A stretch of 64,000 nucleotides of DNA from Spirochaetia bacterium (GTDB taxonomy: Bacteria > Spirochaetota > Spirochaetia > SZUA-6 > Bin103), in contig CBDAOI010000003.1 in assembly GCA_965198005.1 (NCBI GenBank), positions 704,001 to 768,000 on the forward strand, read 5' to 3'. The translations under genes were made by a program, and so were the position numbers. The notes beneath the pieces were generated by a model. The model was not told the origin of the DNA. It saw nothing but the letters and a program-made list of their open reading frames with translations, and did not search any database. Shown here piece after piece: positions 50,925-58,791 of this stretch; within the stretch, counting starts at the first letter, position 1, and every line of letters begins with the position of its first letter.

Positions 50925-51730
50925 ATCACTTCATTATAGCCTGTGAGCCACGGCTGGGTCGCCGCATAGGTCGGGGCGATCGGACCAAATATCGTCCAGT
51001 ACTGCTCTATCGCATACTGATTCAGCTCTTTAGTAATGTTATTTGCTTCCTCCATAGTGGAAGCGGCCAACTTCTCCGCATGCTTGGCGTTATACCATGG
51101 GTCGTCGGTATTGGAGGTGTTCCGCCAATTCCACATAGTCCGTCTCGTAGCGGCCTAGATGCATAAGGTCGGTCTTGAATCGGATGACAGCCTGTGTAAT
51201 ATGCCGACTAAGCTGCCCCTGAGGTATTATATCGGCATAACCCTTATAGAATGCGTTGTTGATCTCTTCGAGGTTAATTGCCATCCGCAGCGCCTTGCGC
51301 ACCCTGATATCGTCAATCTGCGCCAACTGAACGTTCATGCCAATACTGTTATGCCCCGCATCGGAAGCCGGCCATATCCCGAGCTTGGAGTTGGTATTCA
51401 GGAGGCTTTCTACCTCCTCGAGAGTCTGTATCGGGGTCACGCCGAGAGAACCTAGGTAATCAAGCTGACCCGATCGCAGCGCCGCCATAGGTGTCGGCGG
51501 TTCCGTCATATTCAGGGTCCTTACCTCGTCAACATAGGGCAGGCGGTTCTCCGGATATTTTCGTCGTGGCCCCAGTAGTCGGGATTCTTCGTATGAGTGA
51601 AAGAGCTGCCCTCGACCCAGTCAGTCAGCATCATGGGTCCGGTGCCGACCAGGTTCCTCCAGTCGTTAGCGTGTCCGTCTTCCTCGATGACGTCGGGCGG
51701 GTATATCAAGCCGAACTCATCGTCCAAGAT
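50925..51730 (-). pseudogene. Eroded SBP remnant with multiple internal deletions
   Basis: WRNLVGTGPM, ALRSGQLD, DIRVRKAL, QPWLTGYN in disjoint pieces. Confidence 0.85.
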
Positions 51731-51823
51731 AGTTGGTCGGGTCGTCGGGTAGTCGGGTAGTCGGGTAGTGTCACCGTACGCGGGCAAGCGTAAGTACCGC
51801 GCGCCTTTGTGCAAGCGGCCACC

Positions 51824-52217
51824 CCGGGGCCGCGGGTACCGCTACACGGGCAAGATCTCTACACTGCCGAGCAGGCCGCCGAGTTGCTGCGGGTGACCAA
51901 CAGCACCGTGATCCGCTGGGTGGAAGCCGGTATGCTCCGCGGTACGCAGGTCACGGCGGGGGCACCTTGGAGGATCGTTGTCACCGACGAGGACATCGCC
52001 AAGCTCAAGCCTACCGATCACACCGACGGATGGCTCTCGCTGAAGGCGGCAGCGGCGGCGCTGGGCACCAGCCCGAATGCCGTTTTGCAAAGAGTCAGTC
52101 GCGGCGAGCTCGAGGGTGGTCGGGTTCGCTCAGGCCGTCGCATCGGTTGGAGAATTCGTTTACCAGAAACGACTTACGCAGATCAACCGGCGCTCTTTTC
52201 AAGCTCCGATGACCAAC
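51824..52217 (+). repeat. Duplicate of the 3' end of the serine recombinase gene (HTH repeats)
   Basis: Near-identical to 55448-55879 but without the 38-nt duplication. Confidence 0.9.
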
Positions 52218-52544
52218 TTACACAGTGCATTCCAGACTACTTATGACGATGATGATCTGCCCGCCCAGGTCCTGATTCTGTACCGGCCCCACCCGCTGGC
52301 TGGGCAGCAGGTGAGAGTCATCCAGCGACGACGTCATGGCCACCAGACATTCTGGCGGGTGCTTCTGCCAGACGGCTCGCATGCCGAGCTGCCGGCCGCG
52401 TGGACCGATCAACCAACTACCGAGTCCGCGTACTCCGCCGTGGATAATGGCGAACGCCCCGCGACGCCGCAGGCGCTCAGAGAGCTCCTTACCGTGGTGG
52501 AGCCGCTTGTTGGCAGCTCTAGCCAGCGACGACTTGTATTGTAG
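52209..52544 (+). CDS. DUF5372 (Y4bD/Y4pK)-like small protein of the recombinase element, interrupted near its 3' end by IS1595
   Basis: YRPHPLAGQQVRV...LPDGSHAELPAAWTD. Confidence 0.65.
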   Translation: MTNLHSAFQTTYDDDDLPAQVLILYRPHPLAGQQVRVIQRRRHGHQTFWRVLLPDGSHAELPAAWTDQPTTESAYSAVDNGERPATPQALRELLTVVEPLVGSSSQRRLVL

Positions 52545-53427
52545 GGCATGCCACGTCCTTCCTTCCCGGTGGGTCTGCGTGAGTTCCAACGCCAGTTTGC
52601 GACCGAGGAGGCTTGTTACCTGGGCGGTCGTTGGCCTGACGGGTTCATTTGTCCGCGATGTGATCACCGGCGCGCGTACGTTGGTGAAACTTCGCAGTGC
52701 ACGGCCTGTCGGTACCAGGTGTCTCTGACATCGGACGATTCTGCACAATACGTGCCCCTGACGGTGTGGTTCTGGGCCGATCATGACCACCATACGCGCG
52801 GGATACCAGCGAGTGCGACGATACGAGACCGTGGATGATGCTTCACAAGCCGACGAGGATGGTCAATGATCGCGAACGGTGACATAGAGATCGACGACAC
52901 GATCGGAGGCACTCAGGCCGGCGCGGGAGCCGCCGCTCAGAGAAGCGTGGCAATAAGACTGGACGGGCTCGTATGACGGTGATCCCCGATTTCAAGGCCA
53001 TCACGCTCAAGAGTTTCATCACGCAGAACGTGGCGCCAGGATCGAGGATCTACACCGACGCAAGACCTTCACCGGCCTGGAGCAAGCGGGATTCAAGCAC
53101 ATCGCCCGCTCGCAGCCGCTGAGGATCGATCTGCGGAAAGGCGCCCAGTCGGTGGTGCCCCTGGCTGACCGAGCGATCGGCAACCTCCAACAGTGGCTGA
53201 TCGGCACCTACCACGGTGTCAGTCGCGCTCAGCTGCAGGTGTATCTTGATGAATTCGTCTTTCGATACAATCGCCGCAAGCACCCTATGGCGGCTTTCCA
53301 AACGCTGCTCGGCCTTGGCACAGGCCAGACGCCCACGACCTACAATCGCATTCGTGGCGCCCGTGACCAAGAAGCGTCGTCGACTTATCGTCGGCTGAAA
53401 CAACCGTATAAGCTAGTGGCAGCTACC
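52512..53427 (+). mobile_element. IS1595-family element, heavily frameshifted
   Basis: EFQRQFATEEAC, RWPDGFICPRC, IYTD, GTYHGVS..LQVYLDEFVFRYNRR; right end GCTAGTGGCAGCTACC. Confidence 0.8.
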
Positions 53428-53472
53428 AGCTGAGAGAGCCTTGCCCCGAGGATTTATCCGGCGGAGGCAGCG

Positions 53473-53643
53473 ATGGGAAAGCAGCTGGAACTGTTCGAAC
53501 GGGAGGATCGTTGGGTGCTGCGGCTGTGGCAGACGATCCCAGCGGGGACCAAGGAGTGTGTGATGGCCGTGCTGACGCAAATCGGCAAAGCCGCGCTCGC
53601 CAGGAAGGGGACCGAGCACAAGAAGGTCGACGATGACGGCTGA
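53473..53643 (+). CDS. Small hypothetical protein coupled to the recombinase
   Basis: GGAGG RBS; MGKQLELFEREDRW...DDDG*; overlaps the recombinase start. Confidence 0.6.
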   Translation: MGKQLELFEREDRWVLRLWQTIPAGTKECVMAVLTQIGKAALARKGTEHKKVDDDG

Positions 53644-55887
53644 TGGGATCACCACGGGTCAGCGTAACCGTCTGGCGGTCGTCTACATCCGTCAGTCCTC
53701 GCCGCAACAGATAGCGCGCAACCCGGAGAGTCAGAGACGGCAGCGTGGGTTTGTGAACCGGGCGGTGCAGTTGGGCTGGCCGGCAAACCGTATCCGCGTC
53801 ATCGACGAGGATATGGGGCAGTCGGGGGCGCGATCGGGCAGCCGCCAGGGCTTCCAGCAGATGGTGGCCATGGCGGCGCTGGGCCGTATCGGGATCATTC
53901 TCGCTTTGGAAGTCTCGCGGCTGGCCCGCAGCAATGGCGATTGGTACCAGCTGCTGGACGTCTGTGCGGTCGCAGGTATCCTCATTGCCGATGAGGAAGG
54001 GCTCTACGATCCGGCGGCCTACAACGATCGGCTCCTGCTGGGGTTGAAGGGTACGATGAGCGAGGCCGAGTTGCACCTGATCAAACAGCGGCTGGTGGAA
54101 GGGATGCGGGCGAAGGCCCGGCGAGGCGAACTACGCCGCCGTCTGCCAGCGGGGTTTGTATGGGATCAGGCCGGACGGATTGTCAAAGATCCCAACGAGC
54201 AGGTGGTAGCGGCGATTGACGAGGTGTTCCATCGCTTTCGCAGAGTGGGCACGATTGGTCAAACGCAGCTGTCGCTGATCGACCAAGGGGTGGAGATTCC
54301 GGCACGGACCGAGCAAGGGACGTTGCGCTGGAGCCGCCCCAGTATTGGAGCGGTGGCACGGATGCTGAAGAATCCCACCTACGCCGGAGCCTACGTCTAT
54401 GGTCGCCGCCAGGTAGAGGAGCAACTGGACGGGTCTCTGAAGCCGCAGAAGCGAATGCGGGAAGTCGAGCCGCAGCGGTGGCACGCATTGCTGAAGGATC
54501 ACCACGAGGGCTACCTGAGTTGGGAGCAGTTCGAACACAACCAGAGGCAGATCAGGAGCAACCGGCGGGCGCCCGGCGAGGCTGGCGCACCCCGTGAAGG
54601 CGATGGGCTGCTGCAGGGCTTGGTGCTCTGTGGGATCTGCGGCAGGCGACTGCACATCGCCTACGGCAAGGGCTCCAAGCCATCGCGTTATTGGTGTGTC
54701 CAAGCTCGCCGCCAGAGTGGTGAGCCGACCTGCCAGAGCTTCGGGGCGCGGCGGCTCGAGCAGGCCGTCGAGCGGTTATTGCTGCAGTGTCTGTCGCCGT
54801 TAGGAATGCAGGCGATGTTGGAGGCGGCCCGGCTGCATGCCGAGGATGCTCAGCTGGAGCAGCAACGCCACGAACAGCGACTGGAGCGGGCACGCTACGA
54901 GGTGAGCCTGGCCCGCCGCCAATACGATGCGGTGGACCCTGAGAATCGGCTCGTGGCTCGGGAGTTGGAGAGCCGATATGAGAAGGCGCTATGTACCGAG
55001 CGCGATGTTCAAGCCGACGTCATGCGCGAGCTCGACAGGCTCCAGGAGCCCCTCAGCGCCGAACAGGAGCAGCTTCTGGAGCGCTACAGCGAGGACCTCC
55101 AGCCGTTGTGGAAGGCACCCACCACAGGAGCTGCCGATCGCAAGCGTATCGTGCGCTGCTTGATCGAGGCGGTGGTGGTCAGCGCATCTCGCGACAGCTC
55201 GACGCTCACGGCAAAGGTTCACTGGAAGGGCGGGTAGGTCACAGCGATCGAGCTGCCCAAAGGCCGCCCGGGCGTACATCGCTATGTCTCGCCTCCGGAG
55301 TTGGTGGAGCTCATTAGGACACTGGCAGCCGAGTTCACTGACGCCCAGATCGCGAGGATCCTAAGGCGCAAGAAACTGCTCACGCCCAAGGGCCACTCCT
55401 TCATGGCCTATCACGTGGCCAACGTGCGCCTCAAGCACGGTATTGCACCGGGGCCGCGGGTACCGCTACACGGGCAAGATCTCTACACTGCCGAGCAGGC
55501 CGCAGAGTTGCTGGGGGTGACCAACAGCACCGTGATCCGCTGGGTGGAAGCCGGTATGCTCCGCGGTACGCAGGTCACGGCGGGGGCACCGGTATGCTCC
55601 GCGGTACGCAGGTCACGGCGGGGGCACCTTGGAGGATCGTTGTCACCGACGAGGACATCGCCAAGCTCAAGCCTACCGATCACACCGACGGATGGCTCTC
55701 GCTGAAGGCGGCAGCGGCGGCGCTGGGCACCAGCCCGAATGCCGTTTTGCAAAGAGTCAGTCGCGGCGAGCTCGAGGGTGCTCGGGTTCGCTCAGGCCGT
55801 CGCATCGGTTGGAGAATTCGTTTACCAGAAACGACTTACGCAGATCAACCGGCGCTCTTTTCAAGCTCCGATGACCAACTTATGTGA
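53633..55887 (+). pseudogene. Large serine recombinase (resolvase, recombinase and Zn-ribbon domains plus C-terminal HTHs); in-frame TAG at 55235 and a 38-nt duplication at 55551-55626
   Basis: VYIRQSS, LEVSRLARS, LLGLKGTMSEAEL, NPTYAG, CGICG, VDPENRLV. Confidence 0.9.
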
Positions 55888-55904
55888 GGTATAGCAGTAT
55901 GAAC

Positions 55905-56032
55905 CGCATTGTCCGTGCTGCGGCTCAGAGATGAGGGTGATTGCCCTCATTCACGACCCGGTGGAGATCAAGCGCATCGTTGACCATCTAATCAAAAGTG
56001 GCAGAGCGCCTCCAGGGCTGAAGGTGTCTTGA
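55905..56032 (+). pseudogene. IS91-like transposase C-terminal tip
   Basis: CPCCGSEMRVIALIHDPVEIKRIVDHL...RAPP. Confidence 0.65.
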
Positions 56033-56349
56033 GTGAGTTGAGCTTCGACATCCTCGCTGCGCCCCCTCTCTGGCCTTAGCGCCCGCGAAAGCTGCCCTCC
56101 GTCTTTCCAGTCAGCTCACCTGCAGCGGTTGCAGAACACACCAGTTGACAGCTTTGGCGCTTTCACCTAAGGTCGGAGCGTTCTGGTGGGGGGCCGAGAT
56201 GAGGGCAGAGATGGGTATTGACAGATCGACAGCTTGGGCCCATGGTTCACCCATGTTGAGAGTTGATGCGGGGGGAGTGGAATCTGCCAGGGCGCGCTCG
56301 TCCGATCCCGCAGGCTCTGTCGGGGCCAACTTGCCAGCCTGCAGCAGCT

Positions 56350-56775
56350 CCCGTCCTTGTTCGCGGGTTTCCCAGGTACTATGGGCCTGTCCGACTTCCC
56401 AGCTCCGTTCATCGTCGGCGTACGTCCTTGGACTTCCCGACACGGCCTGCGACGCCATCCGCCACAGGCGAAGCTGGGATCTCCCGGCTCCCGCGCAAGG
56501 TGTTTCCGTACGTGCCCGGGGTCTTGGACCGCGCAGGGTCCCGTGGCGCCTCGCGATATCGGCGCCCCGGGTGTGGCCTTCCGCATCCTCCTACGGCGTC
56601 GGCACCCCAAAGTAATTCCTTTCGCGGCTCGATACCCGGCCCGCACGTACCCCTGTCAACGCTTCACCCCCGCCCTCGCGGGCGACGGCGCATGACTCGG
56701 GGCCGCCGTGGGTCGCTAACCCTTCGACGTATGACTCTTCCATTCACAACACCCTGCCGGTTTGTGCCGGCGCAC
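56350..56775 (-). mobile_element. Group II intron 5' fragment (DI to start of DIII), class E-like
   Basis: Begins GTGCGCCGG at 56775; GAAGGGTTAGCGACCCACGGCGGCCCCGAGTCATGCG; GAAGCGTTGACAGGGG; DIII GGAAGTCGGACAGGCCCATAGTACC; EBS1/IBS1 pairing. Confidence 0.85.
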
Positions 56776-56930
56776 AGGAGGTTCGAATGATACTCAAAGA
56801 ACCGCACGCGCGCGCGGCGTGAGCCGGGGTGAACCCGCTGAGTCACACGCCGCGCGCTTTTAGTGAATTTGACTCTGACTGGCCGTCCGCGTTGCGGGCA
56901 TGAGAGTAGCCAGGGAGCGGTAATCCGCTA
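56776..56930 (+). promoter_or_regulatory. Conserved leader A with uORF MILKEPHARAA (56787-56822)
   Basis: AGGAGG SD; homologous to 28196-28347. Confidence 0.55.
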
Positions 56931-56967
56931 CGCAATACTCTCGAAAAATCTACATACGGAGCTACGT

Positions 56968-58791
56968 ATGATTACTGTACAAATTACAATCATAAGGACC
57001 TTCGCGTTTGCGTTGGTCCTGGTCATGACCGCAACCGGCCTCTGGGCGGGTGGCGCAGAGGAGGAGCCGACAGCCGCCGCCGACAAGAGGTACGTGACCG
57101 ACCCCACCACCGGCAAGGCGGTGACCGCACCGGAGTATGGCGGGACATTGACCCAGGTCCTGAAATGGGGCGATGTCGACTTTCGACCGGATGCCTATAT
57201 TGGCGGTAATTTATCGTTACTCATCATCAGTGGCGTTCTAGAGAAGCTGGCCATGGTGGACTGGGCAATAGATAGGGACATATATCCTTTTTTCGGCGGC
57301 TACATGGCGCCTGTATTCGCCCTGACGGGGGCGCTGGCGGAAAGCTGGGAACAGCGTGATGACACAACTTATATCTTACACATCCGCCAGGGCGTTCACT
57401 GGCATGATAAGCCGCCGGTGAACGGGCGTGAGCTAACTGCCAAGGATGTAGAACATTCCTTTCACCGCATGTTGGGAAATAAATTGACAGGGACCGAGTT
57501 CAGTGAAGCCGAACCTTCCCCAGGGGGAGGTCACCTCGTAGCTTTGCCTTGGGAATCGGTAGAGGCCACCGACAAGTGGACGGTTGTTATGAAGCTGAAG
57601 GAGCCAAAAATCCTTGCCCTGGGTTATATCTTGGACTGGTTCAGTATGGTTATACAGCCCCCCGAGCTACTCGAGGAATACGGGGACGATTGGGATTGGC
57701 AGAATGTGGTCGGCACCGGGCCCTATATGATAACTGACTTGGTCCCGGTCAGCTCTGTGACCTGGACCAAGAATCCCAACTACTGGGGCTTCGACGAAAA
57801 ATACCCGGAGAACCGCCTGCCCTATATTGACACGTTAAAGGGACTTGTTATCATGGAAGTGGGCACATTTCTGGCGGGACTGCGCACGGGTAAGATCGAT
57901 TTCATAGGTTGGCCGGGCTCCTCTCAATTAAACGCTATAGACCAGGCAGAGAGCCTCATGCGGACCAACCCCGAACTCGTACTCCACACGTGGTCAGAAC
58001 GGTCGAATGCTGTTAGCGCGTTGAACCAGCGCCAGGCGCCCTATGACGACATCCGGGTGCGCCGCGCAATGCAGATGGCACTGGACCTCGAGACAATTAA
58101 CAATACCTACTTTAAGGGTTATGCAGAAACGTTACCTCGGGGGATGGTAGGCCTGGAATTCAAGGGGTATCACGTCCCATTTGAAGAGTGGCCCGAAGAG
58201 ATCAAGGGATACTATACCTATGACCCAGCAGGGGCCGAGAAGCTGCTTGATGAGGCTGGGCTTCCGCGTGGCGCCGACGGCATTAGATTCAAGACCACGT
58301 ACCTGCACCACCCGCGGCGTGATGTGAGCCTCACAGAATTACTGGCAGCACACTGGCGTGACATTGGCGTTGATGTGGTTATTGACACACCTAGCGGTGC
58401 AGAATTTAATACTAGAGTGAAAGTTGGAGATTTTGGTTTGTCCACGGATGTTGGGGGCGTCAAGGCTGATCCATTTTGGCAAGTCGGTAAGTTTCTCTCG
58501 GGCTCTGGAACGAACAGAGCTGGACTCTCCGACGCGCAATATGACGCCCTGTATGAAGCCGCCCCGGTGGCTACCACCATGGAGGAGCACGTGAGGCTGA
58601 TTAAAGAGATGGACTGGCGCATCATAGAGCAGCACTGGATGATCTGGGGGCCTTTGGCCCCAGCGTTTACCGTGCACCAGCCGTGGGTGATAGGTTATAA
58701 CGCCGAAGGCGGCTTTGGAGGAATGCAAAACCATGTTGTCTTCTCCCGCCTCTGGATTGATAGTGAGCTGAAGGAAGCAATGGGTCATTAA
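56968..58791 (+). CDS. Peptide ABC substrate-binding protein (module 7)
   Basis: Signal peptide ...MTATGLWA; APEYGGTLT; SBP family 5 motifs. Confidence 0.93.
   Translation: MITVQITIIRTFAFALVLVMTATGLWAGGAEEEPTAAADKRYVTDPTTGKAVTAPEYGGTLTQVLKWGDVDFRPDAYIGGNLSLLIISGVLEKLAMVDWAIDRDIYPFFGGYMAPVFALTGALAESWEQRDDTTYILHIRQGVHWHDKPPVNGRELTAKDVEHSFHRMLGNKLTGTEFSEAEPSPGGGHLVALPWESVEATDKWTVVMKLKEPKILALGYILDWFSMVIQPPELLEEYGDDWDWQNVVGTGPYMITDLVPVSSVTWTKNPNYWGFDEKYPENRLPYIDTLKGLVIMEVGTFLAGLRTGKIDFIGWPGSSQLNAIDQAESLMRTNPELVLHTWSERSNAVSALNQRQAPYDDIRVRRAMQMALDLETINNTYFKGYAETLPRGMVGLEFKGYHVPFEEWPEEIKGYYTYDPAGAEKLLDEAGLPRGADGIRFKTTYLHHPRRDVSLTELLAAHWRDIGVDVVIDTPSGAEFNTRVKVGDFGLSTDVGGVKADPFWQVGKFLSGSGTNRAGLSDAQYDALYEAAPVATTMEEHVRLIKEMDWRIIEQHWMIWGPLAPAFTVHQPWVIGYNAEGGFGGMQNHVVFSRLWIDSELKEAMGH

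Follow-up and report, generated by a model that had tools for sequence, protein, structure and literature searches.

A serine-recombinase element whose DUF5372 gene is probably cut by integration and whole when the element ends are joined

INTRODUCTION

Can one end of a mobile element carry the start of a gene whose body lies at the other end? The question is raised by a locus in the window (the whole 64,000-nt stretch of DNA from a Spirochaetia bacterium that we analysed), where an open reading frame (ORF) of the DUF5372 type stands at the left end of a serine-recombinase element and an SD sequence and an ATG stand at its right end. According to the original prediction, joining the ends at a shared AAC would complete the gene, and the arrangement would act as a genetic switch. 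In our reading the locus is a serine-recombinase element whose DUF5372 gene is cut by integration and is whole when the ends are joined, and we put the probability of this at roughly 0.7. The element ends, the frame relation between them, its conservation and the presence of the joined frame in public assemblies are direct observations.

RESULTS

The element and its genes

Within the window lies a decayed copy of a mobile element that is small, carries no cargo and depends on a large serine recombinase (LSR) for its movement. Without a later insertion sequence (IS), the element measures about 2.7 kb and carries three genes, DUF5372, a 56-aa ORF (orf2) and the LSR gene; it is inserted in what is left of the 3′ part of an IS91/ISCR-type transposase gene. 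The features, with the basis for each in brackets, are the following:

51824 to 52220, plus strand: partial second copy of the LSR 3′ end with two HTH_17 regions, cut at 51823/51824 (direct repeats; HTH_17, E 6.2e-13)
52209 to 52211, plus strand: in-frame ATG from the duplicated LSR 3′ end (four codons ahead of the left end)
52220 to 52221, no strand: left junction, crossover position reading AC (comparison of the left flanks of related insertions)
52221 to 52544, plus strand: body of the DUF5372 ORF, from the first base inside the element (Pfam PF17342; 99 relatives)
52511 to 53416, plus strand: 906-bp insertion with frameshifted pieces of an IS1595-family transposase (Zn_ribbon_IS1595 and DDE_Tnp_IS1595 matches)
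53473 to 53643, plus strand: orf2, a conserved 56-aa ORF overlapping the LSR start (same place in relatives)
53633 to 55887, plus strand: LSR pseudogene (Resolvase, Recombinase and Zn_ribbon_recom domains)
55886 to 55913, plus strand: right arm with SD-like GAGG, ATG at 55899 and four more codons (homologous arms in 11 other elements)
55913 to 55914, no strand: right crossover dinucleotide CC (best inverted-repeat register)
55915 to 56033, plus strand: 3′ remnant of the IS91/ISCR-type transposase gene, beginning at the CPxCG zinc-finger codons and ending with the stop at 56031–56033 (translation)

No sigma-70-like promoter was detected in the element part of the window; one site was found in 4.4 kb, compared with 1.1 expected, and it lay inside the IS.

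The DUF5372 ORF matched Pfam PF17342 with an E value of 3.9e-7 and 30.5 bits (cut-off 25) over profile positions 6–75 of 78, and 99 cluster representatives were related to it at E ≤ 1e-3. Its AF2 model consisted of a beta-barrel and a helix with a core pLDDT of 76–85, the fold being a generic small KOW/SH3-like barrel (Z about 6). Judged from these relatives and this model, the DUF5372 protein, about 110–180 aa in size, looks real. No Pfam or NCBIfam match was obtained for orf2. Counterparts of orf2 with 30–43% identity occupy the same position in the related loci L005 and L010, and an ORF is annotated at this place in seven fetched plasmid loci. The LSR (53633–55237) contains the domains PF00239 (E 3.4e-20), PF07508 (E 1.1e-12) and PF13408 (E 5.2e-10), and Resolvase, Recombinase and zinc beta-ribbon domains are also present in its homologue P0103. 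Residues R20, Q21 and S22, in a region near the N-terminus that we take to be the LSR catalytic motif, were invariant in 39 aligned LSR sequences, that of the window included.

When LSR(1–534), orf2 and DUF5372 were folded together, a contact score of 0.42 was obtained, with 0.00 for the best of three controls. The contact mark is reached by 58 of 80 solved complexes and by 2 of 110 mismatched pairs; only 7 of the 80 complexes, but both of the mismatched pairs that passed, reach it with a score of 0.60 or below. The runs agreed in at least 31% of contacts and the partner pLDDT was at least 56, with alignments made for this analysis. The model lends weak support to a contact of DUF5372 with the LSR and orf2.

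Element ends and crossover position

We mapped the left end with the help of independent insertions of near-identical or related elements (P0001, P0003, L009, L015 and L010). Their left flanks differ up to the base before CACAGTGC, and the left end of the element therefore lies at 52220/52221. The window, P0001 and P0003 have near-identical DUF5372 genes preceded by three different sequences that end at one common base, and L009 and L015 have element DNA in common and different IS91-type flanks. The AAC at 52215–52217 was rejected as the left end of the element; it is part of the duplicated LSR 3′ end. On the right side, inverted-repeat scoring of the two arms gave CC at 55913–55914 as the crossover, with 14 of 25 matches, the highest of 75 positions tried, and this placement agrees with the geometry of 11 other elements. 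The true crossover dinucleotides are thus 55913–55914 on the right and 52220–52221 on the left. Relative to the shared AAC, the junction is thus shifted rightwards by 9 nt at the right end and by 6 nt at the left end. The left recombination arm covers approximately 52222–52246, with the conserved CAGACTAC inside it at 52233–52240. The left target arm is absent from the window, where the crossover position reads CC at the right end versus AC at the left end.

In the relatives the dinucleotide is common to both junctions (AA in nine loci, TT in two). The flanks of L051 rebuild a group II intron RT motif around the common AA, and those of L062 and L063 rebuild IS66 TnpB around TT, a pattern that points to a two-base exchange without duplication in these relatives. 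The targets of the mapped elements are genes for an IS91-type transposase, a group II intron RT or IS66 TnpB. The right flank of the window encodes 45 aa with a weak match to ISCR_clade_Ia (E 0.0045, far below cut-off). The upstream part of the IS91/ISCR-type target gene is absent on the left side of the window, and no second copy of the target remnant was found in the genome. L010, L015 and L009 have the target motif in their left flanks too, and it is also present at L046, the empty site of an IS91-type gene in the same genome, the gene at L046 matching Y2_Tnp above cut-off and transpos_IS91 with E 7.3e-7. The N-terminus of P0003 is a +1-frame reading of an IS91-type gene. The window adds a target class, the zinc-finger codons of an IS91/ISCR transposase.

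The DUF5372 gene is split between the two ends

As predicted, the DUF5372 ORF lacks a start codon of its own where it begins at the left end; the first in-frame start inside it is a GTG at codon 31. At the right end, GAGG at 55886–55889 overlaps the LSR stop codon TGA (55885–55887) and is followed by the previously described ATG (55899–55901) and AAC (55902–55904), the ATG standing 14 nt ahead of the crossover. On the left side, the ATG at 52209 is followed by ACC AAC TTA CAC AGT GCA in the DUF5372 frame. At both ends the next codon begins on the second base of the crossover dinucleotide. The frame relation between the ends on which the split gene had been proposed is thus correct, with the end positions off by a few bases: at the corrected junction the right-end SD, the ATG and four codons stay in frame with the start-less DUF5372 ORF, and the predicted joined N-terminus is MNRIV followed by HSAFQ.

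This layout was found in all 12 elements for which both ends were mapped, comprising the window and 11 of the 15 plasmid loci fetched, and in three target classes. In each of them the right end provides an ATG, 14 or 11 nt before the crossover and in the DUF5372 frame, and a G-rich SD-like motif 4–9 nt upstream of it, so that at the sequence level the expression signal is split between the two ends and whole only when they are joined. All 14 ATGs within the last 30 nt of the 12 right arms were in the DUF5372 frame, compared with a chance expectation of about one third, although the 12 elements are related and do not represent 12 independent trials. The identity between right arms of different target classes was only 0.37–0.57. 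The right arm of the window has homologues in the arms of elements that use other targets, and for this reason it is part of the element and not of the target.

That the gene is completed only in a circle or tandem holds for the layout of the 12 elements but not strictly in the IS91-targeting subgroup. In 8 of the 10 loci other than the window, the open stretch upstream of the left end contained no ATG, GTG or TTG. The exceptions were L061, with a GTG at −48 codons, and L063, with an ATG at −11 codons; the window has integrated-state starts at −48, −35 and −4 codons. The Tyr-Glu codons (TAT GAR) of IS91-type targets give an in-frame ATG eight codons before the junction, which was seen in L009, L015 and six representative proteins with an eight-residue lead, and translation in the integrated state is therefore possible in this subgroup. 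The homologous DUF5372 genes were also checked for internal starts: an in-frame ATG is present at codon 19 in L057 and L059, and TTG, GTG and ATG are present at codons 14–18 in L062, just ahead of the conserved core, all of which count against a strict start-less rule.

The conserved ATG could serve recombinase binding and not translation. It lies within a motif that is mirrored in the left arm of the window, L051, L062 and L063, in the window by CAGACTAC, and the arms match at 12–14 of 25 positions. Together with the target-supplied ATGs and the flank starts of L063 and L061, this would fit an explanation in which DUF5372 is translated from the integrated copy, using flank or non-canonical starts, while the right-end ATG is merely part of a half-site and its frame a by-product of the geometry. 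We consider this explanation unlikely. In elements that target group II introns the ATG is found at −11, −14 or −8, that is, at no fixed position of the half-site, and is always in frame; a half-site role also leaves aside the SD-like run common to the 12 elements and the eight integrated loci that have no start at all. Moreover, the target ATGs of L015 and L009 are not preceded by a well-spaced SD.

The joined form in public assemblies

Public assemblies contain a predicted protein that corresponds to the joined reading frame. The metagenomic protein P0001, 93% identical and encoded on four contigs, consists of the five right-end codons (MNRIV) followed by the left-end ORF and matches DUF5372 with 30.8 bits. 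Exactly five residues before the boundary were counted in 7 of 60 representative proteins bearing the motif. The longest P0001 contig is 33.7 kb; P0001 does not come from a free circle, and the joined form there is probably chromosomal (a tandem). The junction itself, proposed earlier as something to search for in sequence data, was not seen for the window element (55913 joined to 52221, circle or tandem) in the assembled contigs of four sequencing runs, and assembled contigs drop rare forms.

MNRIV in P0001 could also be read as a left junction in an IS91-type gene in which the corresponding residues are YEPHC, the right flank of the window then being an uninterrupted target. In the transposase frame the right end of the window reads QYEPHCPCCGSEMRV, which resembles a continuous zinc-finger motif, and the N-termini of P0003, L009 and L015 do come from IS91-type targets. 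However, all four IS91-type left arms (L046, L010, L015 and L009) have eight codons from Tyr to Cys/Tyr and not five, and the MNRIV stretch comes directly after the LSR stop and is homologous to the right arms of elements that target RT or IS66 genes. In addition, a TAG stop precedes QYE and no transposase-like sequence is present upstream. We regard this reading as very improbable.

Decay of the window copy

As described earlier, a second copy of the LSR 3′ end is joined to the left end and provides the in-frame ATG at 52209. The segment 51824–52220 corresponds to 55448–55882 with 99–100% identity and abuts the left end. No SD-like motif was found upstream of this ATG, and the left junction lacks 31 nt of the right copy that hold the LSR stop, SD, ATG and right arm. 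A 5′-truncated SBP_bac_5 pseudogene on the minus strand lies to the left of the second LSR copy.

The LSR gene is not intact. An in-frame TAG interrupts it at 55235–55237, a position occupied by E in the consensus of 38 homologues, and a 38-bp tandem duplication within 55550–55628, confined to the right LSR copy, shifts the frame. Contigs of the sequencing runs X12 and X16 that cover the TAG show 1 and 0 mismatches to the window, respectively, with no difference listed at the TAG, and the 38-bp duplication is absent from contigs of the runs X11, X12 and X2. An IS1595-type insertion, flanked by the 8-bp direct repeat TGGCAGCT (52511–52518 and 53417–53424), has displaced the native 3′ part of DUF5372 after 52510; the form without the IS occurs in contigs of all four runs (52510 joined to 53417, eight shared letters). 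With the LSR broken twice, the left site non-canonical and the IS in the 3′ part of DUF5372, the window copy is not the working genetic switch that had been envisaged, and since its LSR is inactivated no switching takes place in it now.

A repeated element in an assembly of four contigs and 90% completeness, with two copies 99–100% alike, raises the question of whether the left-hand arrangement is an assembly artefact. This is highly doubtful: the copies differ by a few substitutions and by the 38-bp duplication present in only one of them, the lack of 31 nt at the left junction is unlike the result of a collapse or repeat error, and P0001 shows a related arrangement elsewhere with the 31 nt present. 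The joined arrangement was probably once present in the chromosome as a partial tandem, from which a later loss of 31 nt would have taken the SD, the ATG and the right arm, leaving the ORF fused to the ATG of the LSR 3′ end. The window adds a decayed chromosomal relic of the joined form.

DISCUSSION

We propose that the LSR recognises a conserved coding motif of another mobile element, in the window the CPxCG codons of an IS91/ISCR-type transposase, and that the attP-type site of the element itself lies within codons 5–6 of its DUF5372 gene. Joining of the ends, in an excised circle or a head-to-tail tandem, would give the order orf2, LSR, DUF5372, with the DUF5372 SD and ATG 1–16 nt behind the LSR stop and the gene complete; in this state DUF5372 is probably translationally coupled to the LSR. 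Integration would cut the gene, so that the right end would retain the SD and the ATG together with four codons and the left end would receive the body, which lacks a start. By this translation logic DUF5372 would be produced in the joined state and, in general, would not be produced in the integrated state.

DUF5372 may act on the recombination reaction. As a guess, we favour a role in promoting integration, or in preventing re-excision after the element has left its site; orf2 would be a candidate excision factor. More speculatively, DUF5372 might be a sensor of the physical state of the element, a built-in two-state switch without a regulator that turns the LSR–orf2 pair to integration. The chromosomal state would in that case make only orf2 and LSR, favouring excision; joining of the ends would complete the final gene of the operon, which would be translated in step with the LSR, and DUF5372 would bind the LSR–orf2 complex and direct it to insert the element into the next copy of a conserved gene from a mobile element.

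In the literature searched we found no published description of a gene split across the ends of a serine-recombinase element. The closest parallels concern promoters. Tn4451 and Tn4453 of Clostridium, transposons with GA ends that carry cargo, are moved by the LSR TnpX, and their joined ends reportedly form the promoter of the recombinase gene. As in these transposons, an LSR would move the present element via a circular form and joining of the ends would create an expression signal that is lacking in the integrated state. Unlike their promoter, the signal formed at the joint described here would consist of a ribosome-binding site, a start codon and five codons brought up to the body of a gene other than the recombinase gene, and the elements of the window family lack cargo and use CC, AA or TT within conserved codons that belong to other mobile elements. 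In the IS3 family and other insertion sequences such as IS911, which use DDE transposases, the −35 and −10 halves of a circle-junction promoter are said to lie at the two ends. A state-dependent signal is likewise split there between the ends and assembled on circularisation, whereas here the recombinase is a serine recombinase and the split runs through coding sequence. Integrases of the SSV1 type and Mx8 intP have attP inside a tyrosine integrase gene that is split or altered by integration. The likeness is that a recombination site within an element's own gene leads integration to partition or alter that gene; the difference is that the gene split here, at codons 5–6, is the accessory DUF5372 beside a serine recombinase.

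SprB of SPbeta and GirX of the gin element are small directionality factors encoded beside LSR genes. In position, the only feature compared, orf2 resembles them, being 56 aa long, directly upstream of the LSR gene and overlapping it, whereas DUF5372 is larger and is the split gene. In ICEKp1, which has a tyrosine integrase, promoter switching of int is reported to depend on the state of the element and to act on transcription (PMC13023037). In the window family, too, recombination genes would be expressed differently before and after excision, but ICEKp1 is not known to involve a split reading frame.

The family is large: at least 8000 LSR relatives were scored and 34 plasmid records contain a DUF5372 match, and intact elements are carried by, for example, Mesorhizobium and Pseudomonas plasmids. 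Its members appear to reside in genes that belong to other mobile elements, namely those for IS91/ISCR transposase, group II intron RT and IS66 TnpB. In the plasmid searches, most DUF5372 matches had no annotated feature beneath them, as listed in an incomplete gene table, and the split gene is often left unlisted by standard annotation. LSRs are major tools of genome engineering, for which the control of direction is a central practical problem. An accessory gene that is whole only in the excised state would be a simple way to make direction state-dependent, and DUF5372, with orf2, is a candidate protein to test. If the tentative sensor reading were true, these elements would be a widespread, undescribed class of hyperparasitic insertion elements and would show how, in nature, gene topology can set the direction of recombination.

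Organization of the element in the window

The stretch from 51824 to 56033, with the serine-recombinase element and its borders, contains the following features.

51824-52220, plus strand: partial copy of the 3' end of the large serine recombinase (LSR) gene
from 52221, plus strand: body of the DUF5372 open reading frame (Pfam PF17342, E 3.9e-7; score 30.5 bits, cut-off 25)
52511-53416, plus strand: 906-bp insertion with frameshifted pieces of an IS1595-family transposase
53473-53643, plus strand: open reading frame of 56 amino acids (orf2)
53633-55887, plus strand: LSR gene, with Resolvase, Recombinase and zinc-ribbon domains and two C-terminal HTH_17 regions
55915-56033 (119 bases), plus strand: apparent C-terminus of an IS91/ISCR-type transposase, from a CPxCG zinc-finger motif to the stop codon at 56031-56033

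The signals named in the original prediction are all present in the window sequence: a GAGG at 55886-55889 overlapping the LSR stop codon, an ATG at 55899 and an in-frame ATG at 52209. The left end is fused, as had been described, to a second copy of the LSR 3' end, and the left and right copies are 99-100% identical. The LSR gene is disrupted at two points, by an in-frame TAG (55235-55237), at which the consensus of 38 aligned LSR homologues has a glutamate, and by a frame-shifting 38-bp tandem duplication in its 3' part (within 55550-55628). The left partial copy does not contain this duplication, which is either strain-specific or an assembly error. The copy in the window is a relic, unable to switch.

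An SBP_bac_5 solute-binding-protein pseudogene (51090-51823, minus strand), frameshifted, 5'-truncated and covering only profile positions 102-241, ends at 51823/51824; an intact paralogue lies at 56863-58791. Because this truncated pseudogene stands to the left of 51824, we read 51823/51824 as a deletion scar. A short 8-bp tandem repeat was seen in the pseudogene region at 51736-51767. The IS1595-type insertion is bordered by an 8-bp direct repeat, TGGCAGCT, and a scan for sigma-70-like promoters gave one site, within this insertion, versus 1.1 expected. The element is single-copy in its own genome, which has in addition one LSR fragment of 72 amino acids.

The region was found in marine, sponge and coral metagenome runs, and the contigs of four runs (X11, X12, X16 and X2) were aligned on 51000-57000. 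The form without the 906-bp insertion also occurred in contigs of all four (joint 52510 to 53417, with the 8 common letters TGGCAGCT), which means that the populations sampled contain both alleles. The 38-bp duplication was absent from the contigs of three of the runs (X11, X12 and X2). The TAG is also present in X12 and X16, since contigs spanning 55235-55237 (1 and 0 other letters, respectively) show no difference there. A 971-bp internal deletion was detected in one run. Contig cover over 51804-52205 was near zero in X11 and X12, from which we draw no inference.

The left end and the target genes

The original prediction had placed the junction at an AAC shared by both ends. This does not hold, as the AAC at 52215 is part of the second LSR 3' copy. 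The left end was placed at 52220/52221 because independent insertions differ before this point. The window and two metagenomic proteins near-identical to its DUF5372, P0001 and P0003, have almost the same sequence from HSAFQ onwards, preceded by MTNL, MNRIV and an 18-residue lead, respectively. Two further loci, one in a Spirochaetales MAG (L009) and one on a metagenome contig (L015), have the element DNA in common and different left flanks, and a third left flank occurs in L010. Each of these flanks derives from the C-terminal part of an IS91-type transposase gene, with the CPxC codons at its end. The lead of P0003 is a +1-frame reading of such a gene, and an uninterrupted IS91-type gene of this type is present in the window's own genome (L046). 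In the IS91-targeting subgroup the DUF5372 frame and the transposase gene have the same orientation. The TAT codon of a conserved Tyr gives an in-frame ATG in L009 and L015, with no well-spaced SD seen before it in either locus; L010 has TAC at this position and then a stop.

Matches to the element were obtained in 4 of 61 relatives' genomes, its own included, and in a phylum sample of 401 genomes only in its own. Genome contigs gave six loci, none with a right end, metagenome contigs gave one locus, and the viral contigs searched gave none. The Spirochaetales MAG locus (6001-6900 in L009, the same as L005) is a remnant with DUF5372, the small ORF and the first ~94 LSR codons, followed by unrelated genes.

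The right end and the crossover

Plasmids provided elements with both ends. A tblastn search with the DUF5372 of the window gave 8 plasmid records, and one with a Pseudomonas homologue gave 34 records with 44 places; the lists partly overlap, and 15 of the 42 listed plasmid hits from both searches were taken. Both ends could be mapped in 11 of these 15 loci. Candidate carriers of an intact element are plasmid MesoLjLa2 of Mesorhizobium sp. L-2-11, the megaplasmid of Mycetohabitans rhizoxinica B12, and Pseudomonas mandelii JR-1. Three loci (L050, L052 and L058) had lost their right parts, and L064, from a plasmid of Pseudomonas mandelii JR-1 (61549-68860), is rearranged and was left out. L064 is the second copy in this plasmid. 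A recombinase gene lies there on the opposite strand, left of DUF5372 and the small ORF, with none downstream, and the arrangement may be an inversion between copies.

The flanks of plasmid locus L051 rebuild, around a common AA, the FFD codons of a reverse-transcriptase (RT) gene from a group II intron, located on the opposite strand, and those of most other AA-type loci read likewise as a group II intron RT gene. The flanks of L059 (4480-4500 and 7239-7260, Mesorhizobium huakuii plasmid) do not read as an RT gene, yet have the same TTCGAC core and could represent a secondary target. For L062 and L063, IS66 TnpB is restored when the two flanks are put together around their common TT. Such a two-base exchange, which leaves no target duplication, is characteristic of serine recombinases.

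A spacing of 11 nt from the crossover to a CAGACTAC-type motif is constant in the IS91- and RT-targeting elements and the window; the motif is absent from the IS66-targeting pair. The two arms are imperfect inverted repeats of each other, with 12-14 matches out of 25 in the four loci scored. For the window, the best register among 75 positions tried (14/25 matches) places the right crossover at 55913-55914 (CC); the left counterpart of this dinucleotide reads AC. In X11, X12 and X16, contigs stop at 55902, a position that would suit a right end at the originally predicted AAC; this sign was set aside, as a variant base 30 nt upstream would produce an identical stop.

The DUF5372 gene is split by the recombination site

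One order is common to the 12 elements for which both ends are mapped, namely that of the window and those of 11 plasmid loci: the LSR stop codon is followed by an ATG. This ATG lies 1-16 nt after the LSR stop and 14 or 11 nt before the crossover, and is preceded at 4-9 nt by a G-rich, SD-like motif in each of the 12. The next codon begins at base 2 of the crossover dinucleotide, and at the left end the DUF5372 frame begins at that very base (12/12). As a control, all ATGs in the final 30 nt of each of the 12 right arms were counted, and 14 of 14 were in the DUF5372 frame. As the elements are related, we take this as conservation and not as 12 independent events; right arms of different target classes are only 37-57% identical.

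In the integrated state, no ATG, GTG or TTG was present in the open frame leading up to the left end in 8 of 10 non-window loci (L055 left out), the exceptions being a GTG at -48 codons in L061 and an ATG at -11 codons in L063. Within the element, the first in-frame start is found at codon 14 (L062), 15 (L061), 19 (L057 and L059) or 31 (window), at codon 37 or later in four others, and nowhere in L051. No gene is listed on the DUF5372 frame in the plasmid loci that were closely inspected, which is a hint only, the gene table being incomplete.

The recombination site of the element lies in codons 5-6 of DUF5372. Integration parts the SD, the ATG and four codons, at the right end, from the body of the gene, at the left end, and joining of the ends restores an orf2-LSR-DUF5372 operon with a short LSR-DUF5372 spacer.

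The DUF5372 frame of many relatives runs ~50-70 codons past the conserved core, overlapping the small ORF in another frame (for example L053 4971-5439, L057 4501-4987 and L005 1468-2019). The predicted proteins cluster at 172-184 amino acids.

A metagenomic protein with the N-terminus expected of the joined ends

When the ends of the window were joined at the true crossover, translation gave M-N-R-I-V followed by H-S-A-F-Q, exactly the N-terminus of P0001. This protein of 118 amino acids, from public metagenome assemblies, is 93% identical to that of the window and was found on four contigs. Its first five residues could instead come from an IS91-type target, as the transposase frame of the window's right end reads QYEPHCPCCG. 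The stretch in question, however, directly follows the LSR stop, it shares homology with the right arms of RT- or IS66-targeting elements, and eight codons, not five, separate the conserved Tyr from the crossover in all four IS91-type left arms seen. For the same reason of right-arm homology in elements with other targets, the idea that the right-end ATG and the next codons are themselves IS91-type target sequence was dropped. On the strength of LSR-stop adjacency, arm homology and the eight-codon spacing, P0001 is best read as the right arm joined to the left arm. Since its longest contig is 33.7 kb, it does not represent a free 2.7-kb circle, and a chromosomal head-to-tail junction is more likely.

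The contigs of the four runs showed no joint linking the right end of the element to its left end, and assembled contigs cannot exclude rare circles. The one joint, in X16, that goes back from 55447 to 51824 reflects an intact LSR 3' end on a copy without the duplication, not joined ends.

The left junction of the window equals the joined junction minus 31 nt (55883-55913), comprising the LSR stop, SD, ATG and right arm. This loss leaves the DUF5372 frame fused to an SD-less ATG from the LSR 3' end. The missing stretch stops inside the crossover dinucleotide of the joined ends, which hints at a recombinase-linked event; the AC core fits no clean recombinase exchange.

A wider set of DUF5372 relatives comprised 99 representatives at E<=1e-3, with a recognisable QTT-type motif in 60. 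Seven of these 60 have exactly five residues before the boundary, the length of the joined form, and six of the seven begin with M. Another six have an eight-residue lead with an M-K/S-S/L-T start, which corresponds to target Tyr-Glu-x-Asp codons in the DUF5372 frame. This latter group matters as evidence against a strict rule that the gene is completed in the circle only. The original interpretation is partly supported: the split-gene layout is conserved and the joined form exists. Switching, circles and a function of DUF5372 are putative, and the copy in the window is dead.

Properties of the encoded proteins

The LSR belongs to a family of ~730-amino-acid proteins with the same domain order, and all 8000 scored candidates were significant (a family of at least 8000). 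Of the 120 LSR relatives listed (P0102-P0221), 84 have a longest contig of no more than 3.7 kb, comparable in length to the element, which fits a multi-copy or a circular element without telling which. The 56-amino-acid orf2 is conserved in both position and sequence, and its position makes it a candidate small directionality factor.

The predicted fold of DUF5372 is a small four-strand barrel followed by a helix (mean pLDDT 69.6, core 76-85). The best Foldseek match in the PDB had an E of 0.018. The VIA structural search returned KOW, SH3 and Tudor barrels at generic Z values of 5-6, among them a NusG KOW domain (Z 6.0, with an rmsd of 2.7 A across 51 residues). The searches with DUF5372 gave no usable match in the ESM Atlas and no match in NCBIfam.

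A predicted complex of LSR(1-534), orf2 and DUF5372 scored 0.42, the best of three controls scoring 0.00. In the calibration, 58 of 80 solved complexes passed the mark, as did 2 of 110 mismatched pairs; at scores of <=0.60, passes came from just 7 of the solved complexes and from both of these mismatches. These counts hold only roughly here because the alignments were our own. The runs agreed in at least 31% of contacts, with a partner pLDDT of at least 56. The model thus lends weak support to a putative contact between LSR, orf2 and DUF5372.

A possible mechanism and its relation to known systems

We propose that translation of DUF5372 would be confined almost entirely to the joined state, and that the protein would act on the recombination reaction. 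In the reading that we prefer, orf2 and LSR would favour excision, and DUF5372, made only after excision, would turn the system towards integration.

Our literature search found no description of DUF5372, of the element family or of the split-gene arrangement, subscription journals and preprint supplements being outside its scope. Nothing related was found on a serine recombinase combined with a group II intron RT gene or with IS91, the latter as judged by titles and abstracts. The nearest known principle is an expression signal created at the joint of a circular form. The joint of Tn4451/Tn4453 reportedly forms a promoter for TnpX, and IS911 is likewise said to have a junction promoter; in those systems a promoter arises at the joint, whereas here an accessory gene has its reading frame divided at codon five. 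In SSV1-type integrases the gene is partitioned by an internal attP, so that the integrase gene itself is divided there and an accessory gene of a serine-recombinase element here. Unlike these systems, the present family inserts into conserved codons of genes of other mobile elements. The difference from what is known therefore lies in the splitting of an accessory-gene reading frame at its fifth codon, together with the use of mobile-element genes as targets.
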